Notes: generated by a model from the letters alone, not told the origin. Counted from the first letter of the stretch, positions 11,664-60,328 are shown. The stretch: 64,000 nt of DNA from an uncultured Gammaproteobacteria bacterium (GCA_964403585.1 CAYOFQ010000001.1:712630-776629), one strand, 5' to 3'. Numbers and translations are program-made.

Positions 11664-11689
11664 CATACGTCTCGCAACGTATGTTTTTT
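11664..11689 (+). terminator. Rho-independent terminator
   Basis: acatacgt-ctcgca-acgtatgt hairpin followed by TTTTTT. Confidence 0.5.
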
Positions 11690-11724
11690 GCTGTTATAAG
11701 GATAAAATTGCACAAGGAGTTCAT

Positions 11725-11952
11725 ATGCCCGAATCCCGCAGTCACGGACATTTAATTATCGGAATTGATCAAAGAGGATCCGAAAAAATAGGCCGACCTG
11801 CTTCCGGAAGTGCAACCGAAGGTCCCGCTTTTTTCTTAACCGAGGCACCCCCCGCACGACGCGCACTTGCAGATAATACAGCCATAGACATTAAATCAGG
11901 AACTGGTGCCGGACGGGTGGACATTTCCGGTGGTCCGGTAACGCGTCGCTAA
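11725..11952 (+). CDS. Small Gly/Ala-rich hypothetical protein (75 aa)
   Basis: RBS aaggag. No TM segment, so it is not YajC. It lies immediately upstream of secD. Confidence 0.35.
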   Translation: MPESRSHGHLIIGIDQRGSEKIGRPASGSATEGPAFFLTEAPPARRALADNTAIDIKSGTGAGRVDISGGPVTRR

Positions 11953-11990
11953 TTGACTCTCACCTCAAATAAAAATATAATACCGCCATT

Positions 11991-13403
11991 ATGGCACAAC
12001 ACAACCGCTACGCGAATAAACCGCACACCCAAAAAACAGGACGCCCTATTCGGATGTTCATGTTCGTGCTTCTGGTATTCGTCGCTGCACTTATATATAA
12101 CCTTCCTCAGACTAAAATAAACCAGACAATTTTCGGCAAAAAAATAGAAACAATTGGCGGATATAACATCCTTGGTCGCCCGCTGGAACTCCGCCGCGGC
12201 CTCGATTTACAAGGCGGTGTCCAGTTAACGCTGCAGGCTGATATGAAAAATATCGCCGAAAAGGATCGCCAGCAGGCATTGGATTCGGCTCGTGATGTTA
12301 TTGACCGTCGTGTGAATATGTATGGTGTTTCCGAACCGGTAGTACAGTCCGCAAAATCAGGTAATGATTACCGCGTTATTGTTGAACTCCCCGGCGTCAC
12401 CGATATGGACGAGGCCATGAACCTGGTTGGCCGTACCGCACGGCTCGAATTCCGCGAACCCGACGAGTCAACCGAAAGTGCTGAGGCACAGATGCGTGAA
12501 GCCACTGCTTCGGCAATGTTGGGACTTGATGCTTCGACAGCAGCACAATTAAAAGAGTATATTGCTACACAACCCCGCTACAAATCCACCGAACTTACCG
12601 GAAATGAATTAAAACGTGCAACAGTTACCTTTAGTCCGCAAATCAACGAACCACAGGTGAATTTGGAATTTAAAGATAAAGGAACAAAACTGTTTGCCGA
12701 TCTAACGACTAAATATGTTGGTAAAACTATCGCAATTTATCTTGATGAAGAACAGGTGAGTGCCCCTCGCGTGAATGTACCAATCACCGATGGTAATGCA
12801 GTCATTTCAGGCGGGTTCACCGTTCCACAAGCGCAGCAGCTGGCCACCCAGTTAAACGCCGGTGCCTTACCGGTGCCTATTCAGGTCATAGAACAGCGAA
12901 CCGTCGGCGCAACTCTGGGAAACCAGTCGGTTGAACGCAGTATTATTGCCGGCGCGGTCGGGGTCGGACTCGTCGCGCTGTTCATGTTAGCGTTGTACGG
13001 ATTCCAGGGATTTCTGGCCGACATCGCCCTGGTTCTCTATGCATTGATCTCGTTATTCCTATTCCGGTTTATTCCGGTAACCTTAACCCTGGCGGGAATC
13101 GCCGGATTCATTTTGTCGATTGGTATGGCGCTGGACGCGAATATCCTTATTTTCGAACGTATTCGTGAAGAAATCCGCTGGGGTAAAAGCCGTAAAGAAG
13201 CACTGCGACTCGGATTCAGCCGTGCCTGGTCGTCTATTCGTGACTCCAACGTCTCTTCGCTGATTACCTGTTTTATTCTCTATAGTTTTGGAACCGGTAT
13301 CATTCGGGGGTTTGCACTCACTTTGGCAATTGGTATTTTTGTATCACTGTTTACCGCGATTACGGTAACCAGAACTTTGTTGCACATGTTTTATCGGGAC
13401 TAA
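11991..13403 (+). CDS. secD: protein translocase subunit SecD
   Basis: LDLQGGVQLTLQ and IAIYLDEE...SAPRV motifs. Six C-terminal TM segments of the RND-like SecDF fold. Confidence 0.9.
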   Translation: MAQHNRYANKPHTQKTGRPIRMFMFVLLVFVAALIYNLPQTKINQTIFGKKIETIGGYNILGRPLELRRGLDLQGGVQLTLQADMKNIAEKDRQQALDSARDVIDRRVNMYGVSEPVVQSAKSGNDYRVIVELPGVTDMDEAMNLVGRTARLEFREPDESTESAEAQMREATASAMLGLDASTAAQLKEYIATQPRYKSTELTGNELKRATVTFSPQINEPQVNLEFKDKGTKLFADLTTKYVGKTIAIYLDEEQVSAPRVNVPITDGNAVISGGFTVPQAQQLATQLNAGALPVPIQVIEQRTVGATLGNQSVERSIIAGAVGVGLVALFMLALYGFQGFLADIALVLYALISLFLFRFIPVTLTLAGIAGFILSIGMALDANILIFERIREEIRWGKSRKEALRLGFSRAWSSIRDSNVSSLITCFILYSFGTGIIRGFALTLAIGIFVSLFTAITVTRTLLHMFYRD

Positions 13404-14866: not shown

Positions 14867-16222
14867 ATGCAAGTCGAGCAATCTATTTTTAAAGCATATG
14901 ACATCAGAGGAATTTACGGGCAGACTCTTAATGAAGAGGTGGCTCGAGCAGTTGGAAAAGTATTTTCGAAGGTCGTACCGACAGAGCAGGTGGTAGTTGG
15001 GCGTGATGCCCGTATCTCAAGCCCTGCCTTACACGATGCGCTTATTGATGGTCTTACCAGTGTTGGAGTTTCAGTAATTGATGTGGGTATGGTTTCTACG
15101 GATATGTATTACTTTGCCTGCGCGAGCAAAAATCTTCCCGGGATCATGGTCACCGCCAGCCATAACCCTAAAGAATACAACGGGTTTAAAATGGTCCGCC
15201 GTATTCCATACCTGCTTTCCGGAGACGAAGGAATTCAGGATATCCGCAAATGTATTGAAGCAGACGACTTTCCCTCAGAGTCTGCAACAAAAGGCACCGT
15301 AACCAATGCCAACATTATGGACGAATTTGTACATAAAATTCTTTCCCTGGTACAGGTTTCCGAAATTAAACCATACAAAGTTTTGGCAGACACCGCCAAT
15401 GGAATGGTTGGTCCGTCACTTGTTGAAATATTCAAACATATTCCTCAAGTTCAGCTGGTGCCTATGTATTTCGAACCGGATGGTAATTTCCCCAACCATG
15501 GTGGTGATCCCTTGATGCCGGAAAATCGTCAGGAGTTGCAGGAACGGGTGGTTGCGGAAAATGCCGACTTCGGGTTCGCGTTTGACCCCGACGGTGATCG
15601 ATTCTTCTGCATTGATAAGCGCGGCAGATTTATTTCAGGTGATTTTATGACCGCAATACTTTCCTACTATTTCCTGCAAAAATATCCCCGTTCGACAATA
15701 GTCTACGATATCCGAGCATCTAAAGCTGTTGAAGATACTGTCAACAAATATGGCGGTAAAGCTTTATATAACCGTGTCGGACATGCGTATATCAAAAAGC
15801 GTATGAGTGATGAGAACGCTGTTTTTGGCGGGGAAGTAACAGGACATTATTACTTTAAAGACTTCTTTGGTTGCGATTCGGGTGTTGCACCAATGCTATA
15901 TCTTCTCGATGCACTCTCTCACGGAGAACTTTCCCTTGATCAGGTCGTAGACCAATACGAAGAGCGGTACTTTATTTCGGGTGAGATAAACAATAAAGTT
16001 CCGGATGTTAAAGCAGTACTTTCTAAACTGGAAGAAGTGTACGGATTCAAAGCCAAGGAAGTGATTAAAGTGGACGGAGTAACCTGTGAATTTGAAGACT
16101 GGCGCTTTAATGTCCGTGGGTCCAATACCGAACCGTTAATTCGCCTCAATCTTGAAGCAAAGGATAAAGAAACCATGGAAGCGAAACGGGATGAAGTACT
16201 AAAGGTCATTAAAGGAGAATAA
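14867..16222 (+). CDS. phosphomannomutase/phosphoglucomutase (alpha-D-phosphohexomutase)
   Basis: Active-site TASHNPKEYNGFK and Mg-loop FDPDGDR. Confidence 0.85.
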   Translation: MQVEQSIFKAYDIRGIYGQTLNEEVARAVGKVFSKVVPTEQVVVGRDARISSPALHDALIDGLTSVGVSVIDVGMVSTDMYYFACASKNLPGIMVTASHNPKEYNGFKMVRRIPYLLSGDEGIQDIRKCIEADDFPSESATKGTVTNANIMDEFVHKILSLVQVSEIKPYKVLADTANGMVGPSLVEIFKHIPQVQLVPMYFEPDGNFPNHGGDPLMPENRQELQERVVAENADFGFAFDPDGDRFFCIDKRGRFISGDFMTAILSYYFLQKYPRSTIVYDIRASKAVEDTVNKYGGKALYNRVGHAYIKKRMSDENAVFGGEVTGHYYFKDFFGCDSGVAPMLYLLDALSHGELSLDQVVDQYEERYFISGEINNKVPDVKAVLSKLEEVYGFKAKEVIKVDGVTCEFEDWRFNVRGSNTEPLIRLNLEAKDKETMEAKRDEVLKVIKGE

Positions 16223-16223
16223 T

Positions 16224-16652
16224 ATGGGAGAAGCCGAAGGACAAATTGGTGTAGTTACAGAAAAAAGCGGATGGGAGCCAATCGATATCGATGATCCGCG
16301 TTTTACTGACCCCTCACGAAGACTTGCGGGATCGTACTACGACGCATCTCCTGAGGTTGGTCCGCGAGTAGTTGATTTTATTAAGCTCGCTGATAAAGAC
16401 GGTTTCGACAATTCGGGAAAAGGCTTTTTTGTTGATGCCGGTCAGAGTAGCAAGTTCGCTACGGAAGGTGAGGGGGGTGCAAATATTAGTGTCGTACTGA
16501 TTAAGGATGAAGCTAAACCGGTGTATAAAGTAAAATTATCGTTAAAAGAAAAGAAGAGTGATGGCTATACTCCGGAAGTATATCTTACTAAGCATGCACT
16601 GGATCGCTTTAAACAGTTCTTAAAAGAACCGCCGGAAGAGGCGAGTGAATAA
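16224..16652 (+). CDS. hypothetical protein (142 aa)
   Basis: ORF with RBS. It is apparently translationally coupled to the upstream gene. Confidence 0.4.
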   Translation: MGEAEGQIGVVTEKSGWEPIDIDDPRFTDPSRRLAGSYYDASPEVGPRVVDFIKLADKDGFDNSGKGFFVDAGQSSKFATEGEGGANISVVLIKDEAKPVYKVKLSLKEKKSDGYTPEVYLTKHALDRFKQFLKEPPEEASE

Positions 16653-16670
16653 ACTTTAGCAATGAACTAA

Positions 16671-16697
16671 AAGGGGAGACAAAATCTCCCCTTTTTA
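16671..16697. terminator. Bidirectional rho-independent terminator between convergent genes
   Basis: ggggaga-caaaa-tctcccc hairpin flanked by an A-run and a T-run. Confidence 0.6.
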
Positions 16698-16961
16698 TTC
16701 CTCTGAATCTTTGGAGGTATCTGCTTCATTGACGACTGGCTTGGGAGTTGCTGCTACGCCGGAGTCTTTTTTATACATTTCACCTACCAGCCAGAGCACG
16801 GCTTCTTTTTTATATCGTCGATCACCGCGTTGGTTGATTCGAATAGCTTGGAGCTTTCCGCGTTTTCCCCACCGCTTAAGCGTAATTTTCGATACGCGTA
16901 AAAAGTCTGCTACTTCCTGGATTGTCATTAATTCCGGTAAATCGTCGCCAATTGAGGCCAT
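16695..16961 (-). CDS. HTH (MerR/excisionase-type) DNA-binding protein
   Basis: MTIQEVADFLRVSKITLKRWGKRGKL helix-turn-helix. The start is set at the M with RBS taaggagaattcacATG. Confidence 0.55.
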   Translation of the reverse strand: MASIGDDLPELMTIQEVADFLRVSKITLKRWGKRGKLQAIRINQRGDRRYKKEAVLWLVGEMYKKDSGVAATPKPVVNEADTSKDSEE

Positions 16962-17061
16962 GTGAATTCTCCTTAATGTAATATAACTCATGAATTCATA
17001 ACTAATATATCAAAGGTAATCAGAAGGTATCAAAAATTAAGGCACACAACAAGGGGGAATT

Positions 17062-17097
17062 TATACGAAAAGAGCCGCATCTTTCGACACGGCTCTC
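17062..17097 (-). terminator. Rho-independent terminator downstream of rplL
   Basis: On the minus strand, hairpin agagccg..cggctct followed by TTTTCG. Confidence 0.45.
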
Positions 17098-17145
17098 TAA
17101 TATTTCGGAAGACGCTTAAGCGGTTCCTCAATGATTCATTACAAA

Positions 17146-17541
17146 CTACTTAAGTTCAACTGTAGCACCAGCTTCAGTGAGTTTCTTCTTTGCTTCTTCA
17201 GCTTTCTCTTTGTTAACACCTTCGAGAACTGCTTTTGGAGCTGATTCAACAACAGCTTTAGCTTCAGCGAGTCCGAGTGAAGGAACGAGTTCGCGAACAG
17301 CTTTAATCACAGCGATTTTGTTAGCACCTGCGCCGGTGAGAACAACATTGAATTCTGTCTTCTCTTCAGCCGGAGCTGCGTCACCAGCTGCTGCCGGTGC
17401 TGCGCCTGCCATCATCATAGGAGCTGATGCTGAAACACCAAACTTCTCTTCGAGAGCATGTACTAAATCAGCGAGTTCAAGAACGGAAAGTTCTTCAACA
17501 GCTGCGATAACCTTTTCAACTTTTGCAGATACGTCTGCCAT
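17146..17541 (-). CDS. rplL: 50S ribosomal protein L7/L12
   Basis: Classic L7/L12 N-terminal dimerisation helix, Ala/Pro hinge and C-terminal domain [13 protein letters not shown]...LGLAEAK. Confidence 0.92.
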
Positions 17542-17660
17542 ATGAATTCTCCTTAATGTAATTTAAAATTTCGAATTCACTCCGCGCATGCAATGCGTGG
17601 AGAAAACTCCTTATATTAATTAATCAAATCTCCGACGCGATTTTGAAATCGCGGAGGAAG

Positions 17661-18209
17661 TTAAGCGGCAGCTTTCTTCTCCTGAATCTGGTTTAATGCA
17701 TAAACCAAATTTCGGATGTTACCATTCAATACTCCTACCAAACCGGTAAGAGGTGCTACCAATCCGCCAACAACCTGTCCGCGGAGTTCCTGTTTACCAG
17801 GAAGCTTGCTTAAGGCTTTAACGCGATCGCCGGAAAGAACACTCATTTCGAGAATACCGTTCTTGATAGCCGGAAGATCATTGGATGTGGTTGCGAACTT
17901 AGTGAGAACCTTGAGCGGTCCAACTTCATCGTCATACGAGAAGAGAACGGCGGTTGGTCCGGCGAATGTGTCAGGAGTGACATCAGTCATACCTGCTTCA
18001 TTCAACGCGCGTGCAAAAATAGTGTTTTTTGTAACGCTGTATTCGCCGCTTTCACCAAGTGTCATACGAAGCTCGGAAAGTTTGACCATGCTTAATCCAC
18101 GGTAATCGGTAACGATCATGGATTTGGCGCGGCTAATTTTCTCTTTTATTTCAGCCAAAGTTGCTTCTTTCTTTGGTTTTTGTGACTTCTTATTCGCCAC
18201 TTTTGCCAT
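17661..18209 (-). CDS. rplJ: 50S ribosomal protein L10
   Basis: N-terminus MAKV...EIKEKISRAKSMIVTDYRGLSMVKLSELR is typical of L10. It lies immediately upstream of rplL. Confidence 0.9.
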   Translation of the reverse strand: MAKVANKKSQKPKKEATLAEIKEKISRAKSMIVTDYRGLSMVKLSELRMTLGESGEYSVTKNTIFARALNEAGMTDVTPDTFAGPTAVLFSYDDEVGPLKVLTKFATTSNDLPAIKNGILEMSVLSGDRVKALSKLPGKQELRGQVVGGLVAPLTGLVGVLNGNIRNLVYALNQIQEKKAAA

Positions 18210-18431
18210 AGTGTGTATTCACCTGCCCTTCATATGGATACCTATAAATACTAAAAAACGCCTGCTAAAGAGGCGTAACGAGACAAATTCGTGGGATAAC
18301 ACACCTGAAAACAGGAGAATTACCGGATTTTGAGCCTCGGTAGTCATGAAATTCATATTAAGCCTTTCGGCGACTACTGTCCTTAGCCTTGAAATTATAC
18401 CTGAAATATAGCCAAAAAGTCAACTAAAAGC

Positions 18432-33510: not shown

Positions 33511-34524
33511 TTAGTGAATGATAACCGAATTAGAATTACTTGAATTAGTAATAGTCGTTGTCGCCGAACCGGTTGCCGTATTCACATCCCCGCCGGAATT
33601 ATTGCCCGTATTCACAGTATTATTCACCGTTGTTGTCTGTGTTGAAGTATTGCTTTGATTAACCGTAGTTGAGCTGTTGTTGTTTATGATTATGACGTTA
33701 GTAGAACCACTACCGTTTCCGGTATTACCGATTCCTGACGGGCTAGGGTGGAAAGTCGACGATGCTGTTGGGGAGGGAGTGGTGGTAGGATCGGAGGTTG
33801 AAGATGGAGATGGTGAGGCTGTTGCCGAGGAAGTCGGACTTGCTGAGGCAGAAGCTGATGGGCTGGGAGTAAATGTTGCAGTTGAAATTTGAAGATTAAA
33901 AAGCGGCTTGGTTAAATGAAAGTAAGCTAATACTGAATCCGGTGAAATGGATAACCACAATAAAACTCCAACTACCACTCCGATAATTGGTTTATTTTTG
34001 GAAAAATTAAAATTAAGTTTAAAATCAAGTTTTTTCATCTCTCGGATAATTATCCAGCTTTCATGAATAATTATAAGTATCGAAGGCACAAGAATAAAGA
34101 AGAGCAGACCTAAAGGATTTTTAGTTGATTCCTGAAGAAATCCAACATAGGGAAGCGTTAGTACAACTTTCCCGACAATATCGTTTTTGCTTACAGTCTT
34201 TGGATCTATTTCTTTGTTCGCGTCTCCTTTAGTTAGGTAGTAATTATGAGCAAAAATTACTCGGTGGGTTACTAAATTGGATCCGAGACGATAGGTCACG
34301 ATGTCATTTATATAATAATCAGCTTGCGAGAGCACAACCACGGCACTGCCAACACCAATAGCGGGCGTCATTGAACCGGAAACAACGGAGAGTAATTTAA
34401 TTTGAGAAGTGTGAGAGAACTTGGAATACAGCGCCACGACTCCAATCGTAGCAACCACTACTAAAAACACGACACTCATCACTTCATAAGAAGTAAATAG
34501 TAATTTTCTCCAGTTTAGTTTCAT
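33511..34524 (-). CDS. sipW: SipW-type (S26B) signal peptidase I with long C-terminal TM plus Ser/Pro/Thr/Asn-rich extension
   Basis: The SGSMTP catalytic-serine box and the H of VTHRV are characteristic of SipW/archaeal-type SPases. The 337-aa length reflects a low-complexity tail of about 150 aa. Confidence 0.65.
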   Translation of the reverse strand: MKLNWRKLLFTSYEVMSVVFLVVVATIGVVALYSKFSHTSQIKLLSVVSGSMTPAIGVGSAVVVLSQADYYINDIVTYRLGSNLVTHRVIFAHNYYLTKGDANKEIDPKTVSKNDIVGKVVLTLPYVGFLQESTKNPLGLLFFILVPSILIIIHESWIIIREMKKLDFKLNFNFSKNKPIIGVVVGVLLWLSISPDSVLAYFHLTKPLFNLQISTATFTPSPSASASASPTSSATASPSPSSTSDPTTTPSPTASSTFHPSPSGIGNTGNGSGSTNVIIINNNSSTTVNQSNTSTQTTTVNNTVNTGNNSGGDVNTATGSATTTITNSSNSNSVIIH

Positions 34525-34579
34525 ATTTTCCTTTATTCATTGCGCAGTGGCCACTACGCAATGTAAAAGGACTAAACCT

Positions 34580-35269
34580 TTATGTTGAGGATACCGGATT
34601 CCAGTTAGTTGCCGGTGAAGGCGAGACTGCCGGATCGGAACCTTCCTTCTGCATACCGAACAACTCAATCGGTGTTGTGTATGTCTTTCCTGCTAAGCCT
34701 GAATCAGCTGTTGCTGGCAGGGTTACTGTTACAGCAAATACGGAATAATACCCTGGATCCATGGCTGGCTCTTGTTCGAGAATTAAGAACGGTGTTGTAT
34801 TAGCACTGTCAAAATCACCGCCTCGAAGTGCTACATCCTGCCATTCTGCTTTAGCTGTATCGGCTGGACCATAAACTAGAGGTTCAGCAAACCCAGCTGG
34901 TCGGCTAAGTCCTGCACAATTTCCGGCCGAAGGGTTCAAAATAGCATCAAGTTGTAAAGCGTTCCCAAGAGCACCATCACCTGAATCAGGATTCGAGCGA
35001 TAGATCTTGTAGCGTCCTGGCACATCACTGTTATTTCGTATCCACAAACAACGTGTCGCTGATTGTCCCGGGCGAAGTCCATTCTGCACAAAAGCAGCTA
35101 CAGATGCTCCTGCAGTGTCAGTCATCACAAATTGGAAATCAAGATCTCCAGCAGTAGATAACGTGTTATCAGCAATTGTTTTTGTATCGGTAAAAAATGC
35201 CAGTGTCGCGGTGGTAGCAAGCGCCATCACAACGCCAATGGTAAACAAACTAAGAAGTATACGTGTCAT
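34580..35269 (-). CDS. TasA/camelysin family secreted protein (SipW-cognate signal peptide)
   Basis: N-terminus ...ALATTATLAFFTDT... matches the AFF(T/S)D SipW-dependent signal and TasA fold family. Confidence 0.6.
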   Translation of the reverse strand: MTRILLSLFTIGVVMALATTATLAFFTDTKTIADNTLSTAGDLDFQFVMTDTAGASVAAFVQNGLRPGQSATRCLWIRNNSDVPGRYKIYRSNPDSGDGALGNALQLDAILNPSAGNCAGLSRPAGFAEPLVYGPADTAKAEWQDVALRGGDFDSANTTPFLILEQEPAMDPGYYSVFAVTVTLPATADSGLAGKTYTTPIELFGMQKEGSDPAVSPSPATNWNPVSST

Positions 35270-35414
35270 TTATTATTTCACCTCCTTCCAAAAAAGAATT
35301 CACAGTAGGATAGATAAACGCGGTAAGGTGAAAGTTATTCTAGGAGTATGAGAGTTGTTGATAACTCTATAAATAGCGTAGTGCTATTAAAGCTACAATG
35401 TCAATAGAGGAGAA

Positions 35415-35627
35415 TTATAACGAGCCAAGTTGATGGTGTTCGATTGGTTGATACAGACCAACGGCATCCTTGCCATGATCGGCACTCGCAGGTTGACCAA
35501 CTTTCCATCCCATACGAACCATTCGCACCAGATCTTCATTTTTCAGTGTATCATCGCAGAACCAGCGGAAGTTCCGTTGGACTGCAGTTTCACGAGTCAA
35601 CGTAGTATCGACAGAAATTGTACTCAT
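35415..35627 (-). CDS. small hypothetical ORF (70 aa)
   Basis: ORF upstream of the tasA-like gene. No clear RBS. Confidence 0.2.
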   Translation of the reverse strand: MSTISVDTTLTRETAVQRNFRWFCDDTLKNEDLVRMVRMGWKVGQPASADHGKDAVGLYQPIEHHQLGSL

Positions 35628-35668
35628 AGCTTTGGCAGTGTGCCTAAGAATTATGATATCATAAAGGT

Positions 35669-36664
35669 ATGATTGATTCAGAATTTCACTTTATTGATGG
35701 TGATGAAAAACCGGATATCGACGAGATGGAAGGATATTTTCAGGCAAGGTTAAAAGGTACAGCCTGGGAAGGTATTACCATAAACCGGGATAAAAAAGAT
35801 GGTAACTATGTCATCACATCACTTGGAAAAACCGAACATACTTTTGCAGGAGAAGTGCCTGCTACAATGCTTATCTCGCGGGAAGGGCGAAAACTCATCC
35901 ATGACAATCGCGGGTTGCTTCAGGACATTGTATTCGGTCCTGAAGATGCAGAACTGATTGGCGAAGGTATGGAGGGTAAAGTGTATGCTATTATGCTCGA
36001 CGTCGGAGCTACTCAAAAGGAATATGCACTAAAATATATCTTTCCTGTAATGCCGGATGCTGTCGATTCTGCGTACATTTTTATGCCCGGTATTCAGACA
36101 ATGCGGCTGATGCAGCAGGCAGAAAAAGAAAAACCTGTTCACGGACTCAAATACGCAGTCCCGGTATTGGCGACAATAGATATGACATTGAGCCCCTATA
36201 TTGAGAATAATACTAATTTATCAGACATTTTGGATTATTACGCGCAGGTTATAAAATACAATCGTTCAAGCCACGGTACATTGCATGATCAGCCAAGAGA
36301 TACAACGCATGACATGATCGATGAAATTGCTCACTATGACAGGCAACACTCTTCTGATGACAGTAAATTTATGACCCAGGTTAATATTTGCCTGGAAAGA
36401 GCGGAGACTCAATTAAGTACCTGGATGCAAGAGAAAAAGCGACAAGATCCTGTGCTCCAGGCTGCCCGAATAGACCCGATAAGAGAAACCGGTATCCCAC
36501 AGAGCACGCTGATCACCTTGAAGCCCCTCTATGACTTATTTACGAAATTCAAAACTGACCCGTCGTTCAACGCCGGAAACCCAGAATTTATGGACGAGCT
36601 TATGCAGATGTGCACCGTAGTAGAAATGACCACCGGTATTGTTGAGAACAGAGGGTCACAGTAA
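35669..36664 (+). CDS. hypothetical protein (331 aa)
   Basis: ORF only. Confidence 0.45.
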   Translation: MIDSEFHFIDGDEKPDIDEMEGYFQARLKGTAWEGITINRDKKDGNYVITSLGKTEHTFAGEVPATMLISREGRKLIHDNRGLLQDIVFGPEDAELIGEGMEGKVYAIMLDVGATQKEYALKYIFPVMPDAVDSAYIFMPGIQTMRLMQQAEKEKPVHGLKYAVPVLATIDMTLSPYIENNTNLSDILDYYAQVIKYNRSSHGTLHDQPRDTTHDMIDEIAHYDRQHSSDDSKFMTQVNICLERAETQLSTWMQEKKRQDPVLQAARIDPIRETGIPQSTLITLKPLYDLFTKFKTDPSFNAGNPEFMDELMQMCTVVEMTTGIVENRGSQ

Positions 36665-36686
36665 AAACATACCTGCCCTGCCGAAA

Positions 36687-36920
36687 TTATTTGTTTCCTG
36701 CAATTTTAAGTTTACTGATCGCAAAGTAAGACACAATAAAAAGAGAGACAAGCATAAGGATATTAACGAAGTATTGTAATACCATGTACGGCCCGGGGTC
36801 GAAGTCAACAGTTGCATAATCCGGTGGCCCAACGTCAGGAAATAACGGCGTGAGAGATAGTAAATAATAAAGAAAACTGGCAGACACACCAGAAATAAGC
36901 AGTTTAAGTACTTTCACCAT
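36687..36920 (-). CDS. small membrane protein (77 aa)
   Basis: Two predicted TM helices. Confidence 0.3.
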   Translation of the reverse strand: MVKVLKLLISGVSASFLYYLLSLTPLFPDVGPPDYATVDFDPGPYMVLQYFVNILMLVSLFIVSYFAISKLKIAGNK

Positions 36921-37076
36921 AATAAAACTATAACAAAAAAGGGAAGTAAATTACAGAAAACAGCAAAAGACAGAACAAAAACTACAACAATAGAGAACCT
37001 CCGGGACGTGGTGCGCGAAACGCGCATGTGCTCGCGCACCACATCTTTACAAGGTTGGCCGGAGTCCGGTAAGGTG

Positions 37077-37724
37077 CTAACTATCCTCAATACTGATCAC
37101 ACGTCGGCCGATTTCGAGACCCAGGAAATAGGTTAGCACGGCATCGCCGCGCGTAATCCTAGTATACGGGATTCCGAACCACGAGCAACGCTCGACTATC
37201 CGGACAGCAGTAAGCTGACCGTGGGTATTCAGTGCCCAGCGGCCGGAAGCAAGTCGAGCTTGCTCTGTGACGGTCGGCCGGCGCGACTGGAAATCGCCGA
37301 TACTTAGCTGAGATCGAACGCGCGGATTCTCTTCGAACGGCATGAAGTCTACGATGCTGAACAGCGACGCCGGCCATTGAGTGAAGTCCAATTGTCGTAA
37401 ATCACCCATTACTGCGGAGAATTCGCCGATCAGCGCCAGTAGCTCAAGCGTGGTTCGCTCAGTCTCCTCAGCGTCTACGTCGAGCGCTAACTCCTGCTCT
37501 CGTAAGAGGCGCATGTAGTGCTCTTGTGGGGTCCGTGCCAGGATGAGGAGTGGTCGCCCGAGCAGCAGTTGAATGTTAGCCTTGTGGAGTAGGTAGTCAG
37601 TAAACCTCCGCTCAGTAAGTGCCGTCCAGGCCAATTTCGCCTCGGAAACTTGCGAGGTATTCTCGTGCTCGATATCCTTGAGTCGGAGGATCATCCCGAA
37701 GGCGACGTCTCTGGTGGGGTCCAT
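37077..37724 (-). CDS. hypothetical protein (215 aa) in GC-rich island
   Basis: ORF in GC-rich sequence (about 55% vs about 40% in sampled 60-mers). No family recognised. Confidence 0.45.
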   Translation of the reverse strand: MDPTRDVAFGMILRLKDIEHENTSQVSEAKLAWTALTERRFTDYLLHKANIQLLLGRPLLILARTPQEHYMRLLREQELALDVDAEETERTTLELLALIGEFSAVMGDLRQLDFTQWPASLFSIVDFMPFEENPRVRSQLSIGDFQSRRPTVTEQARLASGRWALNTHGQLTAVRIVERCSWFGIPYTRITRGDAVLTYFLGLEIGRRVISIEDS

Positions 37725-37739
37725 AGGTGTACTCCTTTT

Positions 37740-38183
37740 TTAACGTATCGGGCCAAGTCGAATAATGAGTCTGACCTTGAGGAAATTAAACTCCATCTCC
37801 ACCAGGTAGCGGGCGGAACGGTCAGCGATGTAATAGCTGGTCGATCGGGAAATGCTGATCGGGAACGGAATGCGTGGGCGGCCGGTGGCTCTTCCTTTGG
37901 CAGCCCAGAACGGAATCGCTCCGCTCTTTGGCGACTCAATCAGCAACCATCGCAGATACCACGGGATGAGCGGCATGCCGTCCATAAGTAGGCTATCAGC
38001 ATCAATTCCACTATCGGGAAATACCTCACGTCCGGTGAGGTTTACCGACGGGAACTTTTGCTTCAGCGCTCTCATTCGGATCATGCGTATCATCGCCTCG
38101 GATCTGTCTCGGTCAAGCACATACTGCACGAATTCGTCGAACAGTCTCTCCAGCTCCTCCTGAGGATCGGTTTGGGAAACCAT
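37740..38183 (-). CDS. hypothetical protein (~147 aa) in GC-rich island
   Basis: The start is set at the M with RBS gagagg. It is separated by 16 nt from the downstream gene, so they are probably co-transcribed. Confidence 0.4.
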   Translation of the reverse strand: MVSQTDPQEELERLFDEFVQYVLDRDRSEAMIRMIRMRALKQKFPSVNLTGREVFPDSGIDADSLLMDGMPLIPWYLRWLLIESPKSGAIPFWAAKGRATGRPRIPFPISISRSTSYYIADRSARYLVEMEFNFLKVRLIIRLGPIR

Positions 38184-38600
38184 TTGGCACCTCTCATACA
38201 TATAGCGCACCTATCAGCTCATCAATCGATCGGGCAAGTGCCCTTGTGCTGTAGGTCTTCTATCCAAGAAGTAAAGCGCTTCACGCGTTCGAGGAATCAA
38301 ACGAATAAAGCACCTTACTTCTTGGGGTGTCTGTCTTTTGCTGTTAAGGAACAAAATGCTGAAAGAACGTCGAAATCAAGCCCAATTGAGCTCAAAAGGA
38401 CAGACTTTTAGCTCTACTATTATATCACATTTGAGCTCAGAAGTAAATACTATAGGTTAATTTTTAGTTATGGAAAAGGCACTAAGGTTTGGTATAGACA
38501 GTATAGTTACGAAAAAAGCTTCGAGGCGAGGTGTCGTTGCCGACCCCAAGCTGAAACCTCTCGCACTGTATCCAGTCCCCTTAGTGCCTGATCCTGCACA

Positions 38601-39056
38601 TCATTCGCGTAACCGCCGAGCGGCAGACTCATGTATAGCCACCAGCCAGTGCACCAGACGCCGGTAGGCATCGTAGTGGTTGGCCAGGAGCTTAATGCAC
38701 TCCCAAACGATCACGACGGTGACATACGTCTGGGTACTGATTTGCCGACTCCCGTCGACGCCCGCGTTCCACCCGACCACAATTATGCCAATAAACAGCA
38801 CCGACCACAGCACGTCGCGGAACAGGTAGCCAACTGATAGCGGCTGCGGCTCGGGCGCCAGGTGGATAAGAATTCCGTACAGTTTTGCGAACTCGTCGAT
38901 TTTACCGGCGAACTCCTTGCGGTATCTGGGATGCCGTAACATGCTCATCATGAGAACTCCAAACGACACCAGTACCAACAGGCAACTCAGGCTATTGTCC
39001 AGGAGAAAATTCACCATCTCAGTGCTCCTTTTACTTATCGACATTCGAAACGGCAA
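38601..39056 (-). CDS. membrane protein (island)
   Basis: Multiple TM helices. Confidence 0.4.
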   Translation of the reverse strand: MPFRMSISKRSTEMVNFLLDNSLSCLLVLVSFGVLMMSMLRHPRYRKEFAGKIDEFAKLYGILIHLAPEPQPLSVGYLFRDVLWSVLFIGIIVVGWNAGVDGSRQISTQTYVTVVIVWECIKLLANHYDAYRRLVHWLVAIHESAARRLRE

Positions 39057-39206
39057 ATACGCTATGGTAACGTGCAGGAGTTAACTATCTCCCTACTATC
39101 TTGCGCAGACTGTGCCTTGTAACCATGAAGCCGTTAACGGCTATCACAATCCAAAACACAAGCTGCGGTAAGCAGAAGAGAGCATAGTTCCGGCAATGGG
39201 AAGCGG

Positions 39207-39698
39207 CTAGCGACGGATACGGGTAAACGTGATCTGGATTGTGCGACCCTGCAGGTCGTCCCGGTCGATGAACAACACCAGGGAGATGTCCTGAGACGCT
39301 CCCTTCAAGTGAAAGTTGTCCGGAGCGTTGCCTATCCACAAGTCGGGATCGACCTGCTCGAAGTAACCATCGTCCAGCCCTGGAGTGACTATCTCCACTG
39401 ACCTAGGATAGATCAGCGTCCAATAGTCGTCCTCCCACGGGTTGTTCGCGAGCAGGTTGTTCATCCAGAACCGGCCAGTTGCATCGAACCGGGCTTTGAT
39501 CCGGAGCGGCTCGGAGGCCGTTATCTGCACCGTCTCTCCGGCTGTGTATACTTCATTCGTACCGAACGTCGAAATTTGCCAGTTGCCCGGTGCAACGACG
39601 ATAGTAACCGTATCAGGCTGTGCCCGAGCCGCCTGGGGGAGTGCCAACGCGATTGTCGTGATGATCAGAATCAGCGGGGTGATCAGACGTCTTCTCAT
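39207..39698 (-). CDS. secreted hypothetical protein (island)
   Basis: Signal peptide ...AARA|QPD. Confidence 0.45.
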   Translation of the reverse strand: MRRRLITPLILIITTIALALPQAARAQPDTVTIVVAPGNWQISTFGTNEVYTAGETVQITASEPLRIKARFDATGRFWMNNLLANNPWEDDYWTLIYPRSVEIVTPGLDDGYFEQVDPDLWIGNAPDNFHLKGASQDISLVLFIDRDDLQGRTIQITFTRIRR

Positions 39699-39808
39699 GA
39701 GGATGCTCCTCTGCTTACAAAAGATAGTAGGGACAATCAGCGCTTCAATACTTTAAAGTTCTGACTGTCACTACTAAGGTAATAGCATGGTAAGGTGCAA
39801 AAGGGAAG

Positions 39809-39882
39809 TGCTCCCGATGTGACTCGAACACATGACCTACTCCTTAGAAGGGAGTTGCTCTATCCAGCTGAGCTACGGGAGC
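39809..39882 (-). tRNA. tRNA-Arg (anticodon TCT)
   Basis: Cloverleaf has 7-bp acceptor gctcccg/cgggagc, D-loop AGCTGGATA, anticodon stem actcc/ggagt with loop cTTCTaa, and T-loop TTCGAGT. No encoded CCA. Confidence 0.85.
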
Positions 39883-57783: not shown

Positions 57784-58249
57784 ATTTACCTCCGGACACG
57801 TAACAAGACTCTCCTGTAGAAAGAAGAATATGTGTATGTAAAATACTGATTAATTGCACTTTCCGAGGCTCGTTTTGTAATCTGAAGCTTTAACAACTAT
57901 TATTATACCAAAAAGCAATCCTATAGTAAACACCATATGATGCACTACTCACATATATATTGTCTACCATCCAATCAGATATGTCCACTGCGTGTATACC
58001 TAGTAGCGCATAAAGTAATTTTATGATATACTATAGGCCAGTAATATGTTATTACTGTGGATTGAGTTGGTACTCAATTCGGGCCGTTCATTAACAACAA
58101 AAGACAGGATAGGCACAAAAATGCCTATTATGGAATTCTCCCTTAAATTCCTCTCACGCTGTTAAAGTCGAACTAAGTGCTGGACTACGGCTCGAGTATT
58201 TTGTTCGACTTTAATAAGGAAGGAGGTGAAATATACTATGTCTCTAGGA

Positions 58250-58492
58250 ACTAAAACGGGAACTCCGACGAGTTATGACGAGCGAAGCGCACACCCGCTC
58301 ACACACGCAACGTACGACGCTCTGGTCGACAGACTGGGAGCTTTGGCCGTGGCCGAAATGAGCGAGCAGCAGCTCGCCGCACTGGTCGCCGGAGGCGAGC
58401 CGATTGACGAATCTGAAGCAGGCATGCTCAAAGGAGTGGCATCTATGGCCACACTAATGGGCGCCAGCAGTCAGGCGGTCGGCAAGGCGTAG
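58250..58492 (+). CDS. small GC-rich hypothetical ORF (~80 aa) downstream of tRNA-Pro
   Basis: RBS aggaaggagg. A 12-bp inverted repeat lies in the leader. The track's start is GTG, so the ATG at 58250 was used. Confidence 0.3.
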   Translation, partial: TKTGTPTSYDERSAHPLTHATYDALVDRLGALAVAEMSEQQLAALVAGGEPIDESEAGMLKGVASMATLMGASSQAVGKA

Positions 58493-58671
58493 GAGCAAGA
58501 GACAGAAGGGAGAGAGGAACGGCGTAACCATGCCACACTGCGACTCGGTCAGCCGTGCTGACAGTTTCCGCGCTGTGCGTGTGTTGTACCGCTCCTTTTA
58601 CCCTTCTGTCTTTTGTTGTCCCTTTTTTGAAGAATCTCTTGTATAAATGAAGAAATTTAGGAATTAACTTG

Positions 58672-58744
58672 TCGGGGCGACATGACTCGAACATGCGACC
58701 TCATGGTCCCAAACCACGCGCTCTACCAACTGAGCTACGCCCCG
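58672..58744 (-). tRNA. tRNA-Pro (anticodon TGG)
   Basis: C1-G72 acceptor cggggcg/cgccccg is common for tRNA-Pro. Anticodon loop tTTGGga with G37. T-loop TTCGAGT. Confidence 0.85.
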
Positions 58745-58938
58745 TAAACGCTATTTTAACAATTTAGTTGAGGCATAGCAAGCATACTCTTTAGGTAAGG
58801 CATTTCTCTAAATTTTGGATACAATAGAGGAAAGATAGGAAAGAGAGATGTGGTCGACGCTGTGCGTTTGCGCGCGAGGCGCCGACCACGGTGTGTTTGG
58901 TTCTCTCTAAAAAGTTACTAGTCGGAAAATATCTTCAC

Positions 58939-60198
58939 TTACATGTTGAAATAGTCCGGTAGACCCCGCGGCATTTGCGGAGAACCGTAAAAGGTCCGCT
59001 GAAAGTGAATTATTTCGTCCGAGCTGAGCTGTTCGACTACTTGACTGATAAAAGACTTGTAACACCCGTAGGTGTACGAGTTCTTGTCAATAAAGTAGAT
59101 CGGTGTGCCGGGAGCTTCTCGACTCATTAAGTCGTTCAGTATTAGTAAAAGTACTGTAGCCCAACCGTCTCCTGCGATATATTGTCCACCTGCTGTGACT
59201 TTGCTGACAGATACGTAGGTGTCGACCCATTCCTCGGCGACGTCTCCGGACTCGCCTTTAATGATATCGCCGTATGCGTATGCGACCCGAGTGTTACTCG
59301 AGCGCTCCCAGATTTCAACCCTGATCTTTTCGCTCGGCCAATCCGAACTGGGGTTCCGAAGAACACGCAACTCAAACAGGTCGTTGTTGAAACCTCCAAA
59401 CCGCTGCATTAACTGGCAAGGATCGTTTGGTGGGGGTGTAGGGAATGAAAGCTCGTCTTCACCAACTTTTTCCCTGCTGGAACCCTCTACCTGTTCGGCG
59501 GCGAGTGACCATTGTCGTGCGTTTGCCCGAACTCGCGACTTAGCGATGTTCTCATGCGGTGAATATGGAGGGATTGTTTGCCCCCACATATCCGCGGTCT
59601 TGAGTGATTCACCGATCTGGTGAATCACGGCATAGGCTATTATACCTACGCCAACCGCCGCGACTGCCACCAGAATTACCGGCGTGCTTGCTGCCAGCAA
59701 GGCTCCCGATACAGCAGCGGCCACAAGGACCGTGCCGATGTAGGCTCCGCCTGGTATTGGAACTCCATTTCCCACGCCAGCAAGATTGAAAGGAATTTGT
59801 TTGAGGTTCGGGTCGTGCACCTTGAATTCAAACAAGTTGCCTTTTCGGGTTGAAGTGGGATTTATGGTTAACGAGTTACCCGAAGATAGGTCAGACGGGT
59901 CAAGCGGAAACACTGGCTGGTTAAGCATCGGCGCCATTTCGCTCGGCGCGTACATGCTTGCCCCATCCTCCATGATGAAAAGAAGGTCGTCCCTCTGGAA
60001 CACTGACCCGTTTGCAAGGGCCGTGCCCCAAAAGACATCCAGACGGACGTACGAATCTCCCTCAGGCCCATCGGCCCAGGGGAGCATGACCTGGTATTGG
60101 TTTGCTTCCGGTTTGGGACTAGCCTGGACCGAAGCACCCATCGACGCGAGCACCAACAGCGCACTCAATGCGAAAATCCAGAATGCCCTATGTTTCAA
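58939..60198 (-). CDS. secreted hypothetical protein with central TM segment (419 aa)
   Basis: Signal peptide. GC-elevated coding. Confidence 0.5.
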   Translation of the reverse strand: MKHRAFWIFALSALLVLASMGASVQASPKPEANQYQVMLPWADGPEGDSYVRLDVFWGTALANGSVFQRDDLLFIMEDGASMYAPSEMAPMLNQPVFPLDPSDLSSGNSLTINPTSTRKGNLFEFKVHDPNLKQIPFNLAGVGNGVPIPGGAYIGTVLVAAAVSGALLAASTPVILVAVAAVGVGIIAYAVIHQIGESLKTADMWGQTIPPYSPHENIAKSRVRANARQWSLAAEQVEGSSREKVGEDELSFPTPPPNDPCQLMQRFGGFNNDLFELRVLRNPSSDWPSEKIRVEIWERSSNTRVAYAYGDIIKGESGDVAEEWVDTYVSVSKVTAGGQYIAGDGWATVLLLILNDLMSREAPGTPIYFIDKNSYTYGCYKSFISQVVEQLSSDEIIHFQRTFYGSPQMPRGLPDYFNM

Positions 60199-60328
60199 AG
60201 TACCATTCTCCTAATGCTGTTAAAGAACCAAACACATCCTATAGTATATCATAATATGATAATCAGATCAATTATTGATACTACGTTGAGAGATTTCTTT
60301 AAGAAAAGATCGAGAGTTTGGCTAAAAT

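Follow-up and report, generated by a model that had tools for sequence, protein, structure and literature searches.

Directly past the 3′ end of a tRNA-Arg(TCT) gene of an uncultured gammaproteobacterium lies a GC-rich block of about 2.8 kb, which raises the question of whether this DNA was acquired, by what route, and what it encodes. We analyzed the block within a window of 64,000 nt (the whole stretch of DNA under study), for which an initial reading made from the letters of the DNA alone (hereafter the sequence-only reading) had proposed a decayed or minimal acquired element carrying four minus-strand ORFs, two of which could form a defence or toxin-antitoxin-like module. The first part of that interpretation stands, whereas the second found no direct support. 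The island is foreign in composition, its coding signals are intact, it is absent from two relatives, it sits at an insertion hotspot, and it holds no integrase. We consider it probable that the segment at about 36948–39808 was acquired horizontally; most likely it is the cargo remnant of an integrative element at the tRNA-Arg(TCT) flank.

Composition and genes of the island

Positions 37000–39807 have a GC content of 0.527; the remainder of the window has 0.451. Relative to the full set of non-overlapping 2808-bp windows, whose highest value is 0.499, the island has a z of 4.7. The tetranucleotide L1 distance separating the island from the host is 0.354, whereas host windows give 0.189 ± 0.020 (z = 8.3), and the dinucleotide delta* of the island gives a z of 2.9. 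Windowed GC and tetranucleotide analysis thus shows that composition is not uniform along the window, and confirms the GC-rich block of about 2.8 kb that had been noticed beside the tRNA gene. Coding parts of the island have a GC content of 0.54–0.57, in agreement with the earlier estimate of about 55%, whereas the flanking genes, put at about 40%, range from 0.38 to 0.47 (window mean, 0.454). In 100-nt bins, GC rises sharply at 37000, from 0.28 (36901–37000) to 0.57 (37001–37100), a step that falls at the outer edge of a hairpin at 37005–37045. An AT-rich spacer at 38300–38500 (GC 0.31–0.41) divides the island into two halves.

The four island ORFs show the normal coding pattern GC1 > GC2 < GC3, with GC3 values of 0.63–0.71 against 0.441 ± 0.044 in host genes (z = 4.3–6.1). 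All four are preceded by an AAGGAG-type Shine–Dalgarno (SD) sequence 7–8 nt upstream, as compared with 8 of the 44 other genes of the window (Fisher p ~0.0025, calculated by hand). Most host genes in the window carry a TATAAT-like box immediately 5′ of the ATG and read as leaderless. By these criteria, all four ORFs of the minus strand have the look of genuine genes of foreign origin. Both island junctions are base-for-base identical in independent Logan assemblies of two SRA runs (L001 and L002), and the island is therefore no assembly chimera.

Next to the tRNA gene, a 163-aa ORF (39207–39698, minus strand; GC3 0.71; SD GAGGAG 7 nt upstream) is predicted to encode a secreted protein with an N-terminal, signal-peptide-like hydrophobic segment. 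It is followed by a 138-aa ORF (38601–39017, minus strand; GC3 0.71; SD AAGGAG) for a predicted membrane protein with at least two hydrophobic helices, and the two genes, each with its own SD site, may form one transcription unit. A long imperfect hairpin lies 3′ of the 163-aa gene (39066–39190, minus strand; fold z = −4.5); its arms at 39090–39102 and 39168–39180 are also complementary to 39706–39733 in the 5′ UTR, and its end bears GGTAACGTGC (39066–39075), a near-copy of a junction repeat, X, described below. In free energy the long 3′ hairpins of the island rank lowest, yet z-scores comparable to theirs are reached by about 8 of 50 host 3′ flanks, and for this reason these hairpins were not used as evidence for the island.

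The other half contains a two-gene pair. The first gene encodes a basic protein of 147 aa (pI 9.6; 37740–38183, minus strand; GC3 0.63; SD GAGAGGTG) and the second an acidic protein of 215 aa (pI 5.5; 37077–37724, minus strand; GC3 0.63; SD AAGGAG). The start of the second lies 15 nt past the stop codon of the first; the sequence-only reading had all four minus-strand ORFs right and gave this gap as 16 nt. A promoter-like site on the minus strand, TTTACT-17-TATAAT with a TG extension, runs from 38447 to 38419 (within 38386–38447) in the AT-rich spacer and matches at 10 of 12 positions. One palindrome, TTGAGCTCAG (38431–38440), falls inside the promoter spacer and another, TTGAGCTCAA (38386–38395), lies just downstream; both are candidate operators. 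The 5′ UTR of the pair (fold z = −6.0) holds a near-perfect 62-nt hairpin at 38264–38325, in the region 38264–38345, with an inverted near-copy of repeat X at 38310–38319. At the far end, the palindrome 37008–37018/37032–37042 is exactly as had been described and folds into a strong hairpin (37005–37045, minus strand; 11–14-bp stem, 13-nt loop, then a U-rich tail; −45.5 kcal/mol, z = −3.25), which is likely the terminator of the operon. Transcription of this second unit would start at the extended −10 promoter under the TTGAGCTCA palindromes and pass through a long structured leader and both genes to the hairpin at 37008–37042.

The tRNA-Arg flank in this genome and in relatives

The tRNA-Arg(TCT) gene is intact (39809–39882, minus strand, with the ARAGORN boundary at 39808/9; Rfam tRNA, 69.8 bits) and is 97% identical to the tRNA of a relative, L003. 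The proximal boundary of the island lies at the 3′ end of this gene, and ARAGORN, Rfam and the GC profile agree with the earlier statement that the island begins right past it. Rfam returned only tRNAs, plus one sub-threshold, microRNA-like hairpin match.

At the proximal junction (39789–39809), a 10-nt repeat X, GGTAAGGTGC (39789–39798), directly adjoins an 11-nt repeat Y, AAAAGGGAAGT (39799–39809), whose first base is the tRNA discriminator base. Distal copies of both are present: X at 37068–37077, adjoining the stop codon of the 215-aa gene, and Y at 36937–36947, within the host-type promoter TGTTATAGT of a leaderless 77-aa gene. These nested direct repeats were found post hoc, with chance expectations of about 2–3% and about 1% per 201-nt window, and as marks of integration bracketing the island they are suggestive, not proven. 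A long repeat of the tRNA 3′ end was not found with a 42-nt probe at up to 3 mismatches; the claim that this end has no direct repeat thus holds for long repeats but not for the short ones of 10–11 nt around the island. Serine integrases are known to leave no long direct repeat, which fits the lack of one here. The sequence just beyond distal repeat Y resembles a stretch downstream of the tRNA in L003 (L003 11517–11540; p ~0.04). The empty site predicted from these junctions, CGGGAGCACTTCCC-N(0-12)-TATAGTTTTA, was sought in metagenomes with 0 matches. We also considered population heterogeneity at the junction, as Logan contigs end inside tRNA-Arg. This was rejected: contigs also end inside tRNA-Pro, and the break is mid-tRNA, not at the junction.

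The locus was compared with the only two usable relatives, L003 and L004, each at about 65% CofD identity; a CofD search of JGI metagenomes for closer relatives gave a best identity of 38%. The order HAD–CofD–membrane gene–tRNA-Arg is kept in both, and L003 also keeps the ATPase and PPDK genes further on. Flanking synteny is thus preserved, and none of the four island genes is present at the syntenic locus of either relative; since both are distant, their absence there speaks to variability of the locus and not to the direction or date of the event. Directly past the tRNA, L004 (CAZHTP010000002.1) carries a 506-aa Resolvase+Recombinase protein, an XRE regulator and a UvrD-like helicase, and L003 carries a HepT and MNT toxin-antitoxin pair. 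Because each relative carries different DNA at this position, we regard the tRNA-Arg flank as an insertion hotspot. The whole interval from tRNA to ATPase (33511–39807) differs from L003, including a part with host-like GC, so that the GC-rich block makes up only one layer of a variable stretch.

Cargo proteins and rival explanations

The homology search of the four proteins gave no credible relatives in the databases searched. As the sequence-only reading had stated, none belongs to a recognisable family: no credible match was obtained in Pfam, NCBIfam, PHROGs, PADLOC or the PDB, the best PADLOC match for the pair being PDC-M54B (E = 0.042, 10.4 bits, 43 residues). Word-index searches of 5.8 billion clusters, less sensitive than HMMER, recovered the 147-aa and the 215-aa proteins themselves only. 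A full HMMER search of 1.84 billion representatives with the 215-aa protein found no credible homologue, returning itself and a weak match to P0008, a 963-aa repeat protein. P0008 was rejected because its match (residues 113–147, hit six times, E = 5e-5) was judged a repeat-amplified chance match. IMG/VR scans with the 215-aa and 147-aa proteins gave no matches; neither did tblastn of the 215-aa protein against plasmids or of both proteins against phages, nor a blastn comparison of the island DNA with plasmid and phage sequences. For the 138-aa and 163-aa proteins, the absence of relatives is based on singleton 90% clusters, the family libraries, the PDB and IMG/VR scans, and for the 163-aa protein also on tblastn against plasmids and phages; a concatenated query of the two gave no matches and did not recover their own two sequences either, so that its positive control failed. 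The island proteins have no paralogues among the proteins of a second GC-rich pocket beside tRNA-Pro or elsewhere in the window. Nothing similar was present in any database searched, which leaves no basis for naming a donor lineage.

In the island, Pfam, NCBIfam and PHROGs revealed neither an integrase nor an excisionase, whole or as a remnant, and tblastn found no trace of the L004 recombinase; the earlier report of no integrase gene is upheld. This weighs against an integrative element, as do the missing long repeat of the tRNA 3′ end (the short repeats being moderately unlikely by chance and found post hoc), the failure to find an empty site in the metagenome scan, and the AT-rich spacer and inverted-repeat motif, which also fit a mosaic origin. 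The proposal of a decayed or minimal acquired element nevertheless agrees with the foreign composition, GC3 and initiation signals, with absence in two relatives and with the other inserts at the same flank. Under the scenario we favor, an integrative element would have been inserted at the tRNA flank through site-specific recombination, and its recombinase would have been lost afterwards, leaving cargo only.

The mosaic alternative holds that at least two independent insertions occurred, the 163/138-aa block by the tRNA and a 1387-bp unit (36959–38345) around the two-gene module, the latter of the same family as a 528-bp unit beside tRNA-Pro (58093–58620) that holds a GC-rich ORF of 84–88 aa. 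A perfect 16-nt inverted repeat brackets the 1387-bp unit, its left arm AACAGCAAAAGACAGA at 36959–36974 and its right arm TCTGTCTTTTGCTGTT at 38330–38345, directly past the 62-nt hairpin. A 14-nt inverted repeat (58094–58107/58606–58619) brackets the other. Where 0.05 copies would be expected, the 64 kb contain exactly 4 of the 14-mer CTGTCTTTTGYTGT, arranged as two (−)...(+) inverted pairs that each enclose GC-rich genes without detectable relatives, and the 14-mer is absent from every locus fetched from other organisms, L003 and L004 included. Both units share one layout (motif, hairpin, leader, SD and ORF or ORFs, hairpin, 33–42 nt, motif). The AT-rich spacer has a host-type extended −10 promoter and a weak likeness to L003 tRNA-downstream sequence, and excising 36959–38345 would set that promoter before the native 77-aa gene. 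On the other hand, reading of the flanks (...ACAGAA|...|AAGGAA... and ...TTCATT|...|CCCTTT...) revealed no target-site duplication at either unit; there is no transposase, only two units were seen, within 64 kb of a 1.57-Mb genome, and 3′ structure as strong as that of the island is seen in about 8 of 50 flanks of host genes. Being T-rich and placed at terminator tails, the motif may be a shared terminator-tail sequence and not an element end; it agrees, but for 2 mismatches, with a host terminator at 11680. We consider the mosaic unlikely, and still more doubtful the extension of it to an undescribed, recombinase-less family of cassettes with AACARCAAAAGACAG...CTGTCTTTTGYTGT inverted-repeat ends and subterminal hairpins, which would carry GC-rich, SD-led genes without relatives into intergenic sites near tRNAs and count the 147/215-aa module and the 84–88-aa ORF unit as members. 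An array of integron cassettes without integrase (CALIN-like), its long imperfect hairpins serving as attC-like sites, would account for ORFs in one orientation without detectable relatives, for structured regions of about 100–130 nt that start at or near the stops of the 163-aa, 138-aa, 215-aa and 88-aa genes, and for a short core, GATAGTTA...GCACSTTACC, repeated at two cassette boundaries. It is the least probable of the readings considered: an RYYYAAC/GTTRRRY core pair was not seen at the hairpin ends, read by eye (a weak test), the closest agreement being 6 of 7 positions on one side; a Pfam scan of 27 window ORFs (about half of all) revealed nothing like IntI; the genes are each led by an SD of their own, and one unit also has a promoter; and 3′ flanks just as structured occur at several host genes.

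A further proposal concerns what the 147/215-aa pair does: it might be a toxin-antitoxin or anti-phage module in which the 147-aa protein represses its own promoter through the TTGAGCTCA palindromes. The genes are co-directional and 15 nt apart, one product is basic and the other acidic, two palindromes overlap the promoter, and the hotspot is one where L003 carries HepT/MNT. AlphaFold2 single-sequence models were unusable (pLDDT 32.7 for the 215-aa and 44.3 for the 147-aa protein); in the model of the 147-aa protein, the first 50 residues form a helical hairpin (pLDDT 61–72). All of these supporting features are generic, both proteins exceed typical type II sizes, and no homologues were found that would show the pair conserved in other settings. 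No test supported the module put forward by the sequence-only reading (PADLOC, with its best E of 0.04, Pfam, NCBIfam, PHROGs and PDB all lacked a credible match), and we hold this function to be improbable. Finally, the block could consist of native ancestral genes of unusual composition, or of mis-assembled or contaminant DNA. Host genes also lack Pfam families in 6 of 10 cases scanned, so the want of a family is not special to the island, and the ribosomal-protein region at 15601–18400 reaches a similar dinucleotide deviation. These points are outweighed by a GC3 that lies 4–6 SD above every other gene, by the foreign SD usage, by a tetranucleotide distance far beyond any host window, by the absence of the four genes from syntenic relatives and by junctions reproduced exactly in two other assemblies. 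A native or artefactual origin is thereby largely refuted and very improbable.

Meaning and comparison with known systems

Taken as the cargo remnant that we favor, the islet serves mainly as a tidy example from a lineage with very sparse sampling. All four of its proteins look fully functional and match no family library or PDB sequence, which makes them candidates for new protein families, and its SD-led genes in a mostly leaderless-looking host are a natural test of foreign translation signals. One inverted-repeat motif surrounds two unrelated GC-rich modules by two tRNAs; the pattern, should it extend across the genome, would suggest a new cassette-type mobile element.

Several known systems resemble parts of the locus. 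Like MITE-like or TIR-bounded elements, the two units have 14–16-nt inverted repeats around cargo without relatives at two places, but they have neither target-site duplication nor transposase, and their motif may equal a terminator tail. With CALINs the island shares long hairpins past the ORFs and a common ORF orientation, and differs in the lack of the attC core consensus and of an IntI gene here. The 147/215-aa pair is a tightly spaced, co-directional two-gene module at the same hotspot as the type II pair HepT/MNT of L003, and has palindromes over its putative promoter; unlike type II pairs, it lacks any toxin or antitoxin domain that can be recognised, its proteins are larger and they have no homologues. 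The large-serine-recombinase element of L004 has a recombinase, an XRE regulator and a UvrD-like helicase that the island lacks, and no protein in common with the window, but it shares the attachment point, both loci diverging right past ...GGGAGCAC of the tRNA.

The closest parallel is with tRNA-linked islands and integrative elements, among which prophage DLP12 of E. coli K-12 occupies argU, the gene for tRNA-Arg(UCU). From these the islet differs in having no integrase or excisionase and no repeat of the tRNA 3′ end longer than 15 nt, in its size of 2.8 kb, and in probably being immobile now. It resembles them in its position directly 3′ of tRNA-Arg(UCU), its atypical composition, its absence from relatives and a cargo of no assigned function, and perhaps in its short direct repeats at both ends. 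In kind, it is ordinary: a small genomic islet at a tRNA hotspot.

Composition and gene content of the GC-rich block

The sequence-only reading had placed a GC-rich block against the 3' end of tRNA-Arg(TCT), and this block is real and sharply bounded. Between 37000 and 39807 the GC content is 0.527, against 0.451 for the remaining window (z = 4.7 in 2808-bp windows, all others being at most 0.499); in 100-nt bins it rises from 0.28 (36901–37000) to 0.57 (37001–37100) and drops again at 39701–39800. The tetranucleotide distance of the island to the host is 0.354, compared with 0.189±0.020 in host windows (z = 8.3), and its dinucleotide relative abundance shows a smaller deviation (z = 2.9). Since tRNA-Arg(TCT) has its 3' end at 39808/9 (39808/9–39882, minus strand), the island begins at the tRNA 3' end. 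An AT-rich spacer at about 38300–38500 (GC 0.31–0.41) splits it in two. The island region and both junctions are 100% identical in two Logan assemblies, each built from a different SRA run, and the island is thus not a chimera. Among host windows, the largest dinucleotide deviation was seen at 15601–18400; a 98-aa HTH_17/MerR-type DNA-binding protein is encoded at 16695–16991 on the minus strand (Pfam E = 2e-9), next to what we take, by eye, to be the ribosomal L10 and L7/L12 genes.

Gene calls in public assemblies agree with four minus-strand ORFs of 163, 138, 147 and 215 aa. All four follow the pattern GC1 > GC2 < GC3, with GC3 values of 0.63–0.71 against a mean of 0.441±0.044 for the 49 other window ORFs measured (z = 4.3–6.1). 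Each also carries a strong Shine-Dalgarno sequence 7–8 nt ahead of its ATG (GAGGAG, AAGGAG, GAGAGGTG, AAGGAG), compared with 8 of the 44 other window genes examined (Fisher p about 0.0025, hand-calculated). For most host genes a TATAAT-, TATACT- or TATAGT-like box, in many cases TG-extended, lies within a few bases upstream of the ATG, and Shine-Dalgarno sequences precede only 12 of the 48 genes examined window-wide, five of these 12 being GC-rich outlier genes, which suggests that host gene expression is mainly leaderless. Because composition, GC3 and translation signals all deviate, we conclude that the four genes are intact but foreign.

Hydropathy analysis found a signal-like segment at the N-terminus of the 163-aa protein and at least two membrane-spanning segments in the 138-aa protein, in line with the secreted and membrane labels proposed for them earlier. 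The 147-aa protein (37740–38183) is basic (pI 9.6) and the 215-aa protein (37077–37724) acidic (pI 5.5). That the four ORFs belong to no recognisable family was borne out: searches of Pfam, NCBIfam, PHROGs, PADLOC and PDB sequences gave no match at a meaningful level, all four proteins form singleton clusters at 90% identity, and nothing similar to the island was found in phage records, plasmid records or IMG/VR contigs. Against 5.8 billion clusters the 215-aa and 147-aa proteins matched only themselves. An exhaustive HMMER search of 1.84 billion representatives added one weak match to the 215-aa protein, which was discounted as a homologue because it was repeat-amplified. AlphaFold single-sequence models were too poor for use. 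In one batch of ordinary host proteins, 6 of 10 had no Pfam family either, so that lacking a family is by itself nothing unusual in this lineage. The find would gain in interest should any of the four proteins turn out to be the founder of a new family.

The tRNA-Arg flank in relatives and the island junctions

We compared the locus with those of two relatives, L003 (JALYQM010000015.1) and L004 (CAZHTP010000002.1), which gave the best CofD identities (66% and 65%, respectively) in a set of one genome per species; the lineage is thinly sampled, and in JGI metagenomes the best identity was 38%. In both, the HAD-like gene, CofD, the small membrane protein and tRNA-Arg(TCT) follow one another as in the window, and further along L003 a P-type ATPase (71% identity) and PPDK (91%) are also kept. 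The DNA immediately after the tRNA differs in all three genomes. In L003 the flank carries a toxin-antitoxin pair of HepT ribonuclease and MNT nucleotidyltransferase (11752–12383) and a small secreted protein, after which comes the ATPase. In L004, 11474–20988 is likely an intact integrative element, its far end lying outside these coordinates; its first gene, which encodes a large serine recombinase of 506 aa and overlaps the tRNA 3' end with its own 3' end, is followed by a 71-aa XRE regulator, many small (membrane) ORFs, a 540-aa protein without a family and a UvrD-like helicase. In the window, five genes of host-like or slightly AT-leaning composition separate the four GC-rich genes from the ATPase. 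Since the DNA after the tRNA differs and includes the L004 element, the tRNA-Arg(TCT) flank is a hotspot used by a real integrative element in this lineage. The GC-rich block is the layer nearest the tRNA within a larger variable interval. No traces of the L003 or L004 element proteins were found in the window.

The rest of the tRNA-Arg-to-ATPase interval, 33511–36920, is absent at the L003 locus and has a host-like or slightly low GC content. It encodes a 337-aa S24/S26 signal-peptidase-like protein (Pfam E = 5.8e-5) and a 229-aa neighbour with an AFFTD-type signal, presumably TasA-like; their genes have GC3 values of 0.36 and 0.33, about 2–2.6 SD under the mean. This stretch may be an older, separate acquisition.

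The earlier statement that the tRNA 3' end has no direct repeat holds for a long repeat, none of which was found, but not for short ones, which are present and nested. Read on the minus strand, the tRNA is followed from its discriminator base by the 11-nt repeat ACTTCCCTTTT (39799–39809), then by the 10-nt repeat GCACCTTACC (39789–39798) and the four genes. At the distal end, GCACCTTACC recurs at the stop codon of the 215-aa gene (37068–37077), followed by 120 nt with a hairpin and a U-rich tail, a second ACTTCCCTTTT (36937–36947) and TTGTTATAGTTTTATT-ATG, the ATG being that of a native 77-aa gene. Empirically, matches of at least 11 nt to the tRNA-end region occur in about 1% of 201-nt windows, and of at least 10 nt in about 2–3%. 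Near-copies of the 10-nt repeat lie at 39066–39075 and, inverted, at 38310–38319, and 4 of its 7 matches with at most one mismatch in the whole window are inside the island. Outside the distal 11-nt repeat, TTTACTTCCC...TATAGTTTTA resembles L003 sequence about 20 nt past the tRNA (tied for best local alignment in 6.8 kb; p about 0.04), as expected if this stretch was once the tRNA-proximal flank. The junction pattern, with repeats found post hoc, is suggestive only, and would fit a site-specific insertion in which the core is 11 nt long and the arm sites are repeated. The empty site before insertion would then read ...CGGGAGCACTTCCCTTTTTTGTTATAGTTTTATTATG and the circular junction across the 11-nt repeat ...CTGTAATTTACTTCCCTTTTGCACCTTACCATGC; a search for the empty site in metagenomes found none.

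Predicted expression of the two-gene module

Judged from sequence, the 147/215-aa pair would be transcribed from an extended -10 promoter (TTTACT-17-TATAAT with TG; 38447 to 38419, minus strand), rated good and situated in the AT-rich spacer. The palindrome TTGAGCTCA occurs twice, once inside the promoter spacer and once just downstream, the TTGAGCTCAA palindromes being those at the promoter site of the pair. A 62-nt hairpin (38264–38325) forms part of the predicted leader, which spans roughly 230 nt and is strongly structured overall (z = -6.0). The operon would end at the 37008–37042 hairpin and its U-rich stretch (fold z = -3.25), which would explain as a terminator the far-edge palindrome (37008–37018 / 37032–37042), located exactly as first described. 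This anatomy is compatible with an autoregulated two-gene module; function is not indicated by these features, and the toxin-antitoxin or defence role proposed for the pair, with generic support only, is speculation.

At 39706–39733, the 5' UTR of the 163-aa gene, Shine-Dalgarno sequence included, shows complementarity in 26 of 28 positions to a pair of segments in the gene's own 3' flank (within 39090–39180), with a 65-nt insertion between them. This could be a relic of inverted duplication or reflect long-range mRNA pairing.

An inverted-repeat motif and the tRNA-Pro pocket

A perfect 16-nt inverted repeat surrounds the two-gene module, with AACAGCAAAAGACAGA at 36959–36974 and its complement at 38330–38345. 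This motif, CTGTCTTTTGYTGT (14–16 nt), recurs at 58093–58108 and 58605–58620, with weaker copies at 58491–58506 and 11680–11695, and is absent from the relatives' loci. Its core 14-mer has four copies in the window against 0.05 expected, the second inverted pair lying at 58094–58107 / 58606–58619.

A second GC-rich pocket, 58021–60254, extends on both sides of tRNA-Pro(tgg) (58671–58744, minus strand), and a perfect, extended -10 promoter-like 17-nt inverted repeat, TTATGATATACTATAGG (58021–58037 / 60238–60254), surrounds it entirely. Inside the second motif pair lies an 84–88-aa ORF (58226/58238–58492, plus strand; GC 0.58, GC3 0.60), 50 nt from the tRNA-Pro 3' end; on the other side of the tRNA is the gene for a 419-aa secreted protein (58939–60198, minus strand; GC3 0.57). 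Neither protein has a Pfam match or similarity to the tRNA-Arg island proteins. At 58162–58215 (plus strand), a 14-bp stem, TTAAAGTCGAAC...GTTCGACTTTAA, closes directly on the Shine-Dalgarno sequence of the 84–88-aa ORF (leader fold z = -6.6) and may occlude its ribosome-binding site.

Full copies of the motif always form inverted pairs around GC-rich modules without detectable relatives, near tRNA genes, and in both motif-bounded units one hairpin lies immediately inside the upstream arm and a second 33–42 nt inside the downstream arm, as might be expected of a mosaic of cassettes bounded by the motif. We consider such a mosaic unlikely, however, as a mobile-element reading finds neither a target-site duplication nor a transposase, the motif is T-rich and placed like a terminator tail, an ordinary host terminator differs from it by two mismatches, and structured 3' flanks follow about 8 of 50 host genes as well. 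The motif could be the end sequence of a family of cassettes or a shared terminator tail; the upside would lie in inverted-repeat cassettes proving to be a genome-wide family.

For the tRNA-Arg island itself, its foreign composition, GC3 and Shine-Dalgarno sequences, together with the variability of the locus in L003 and L004, support the original view of an acquired, decayed or minimal element. It is a small, integrase-free islet at a tRNA hotspot, of a kind already known.
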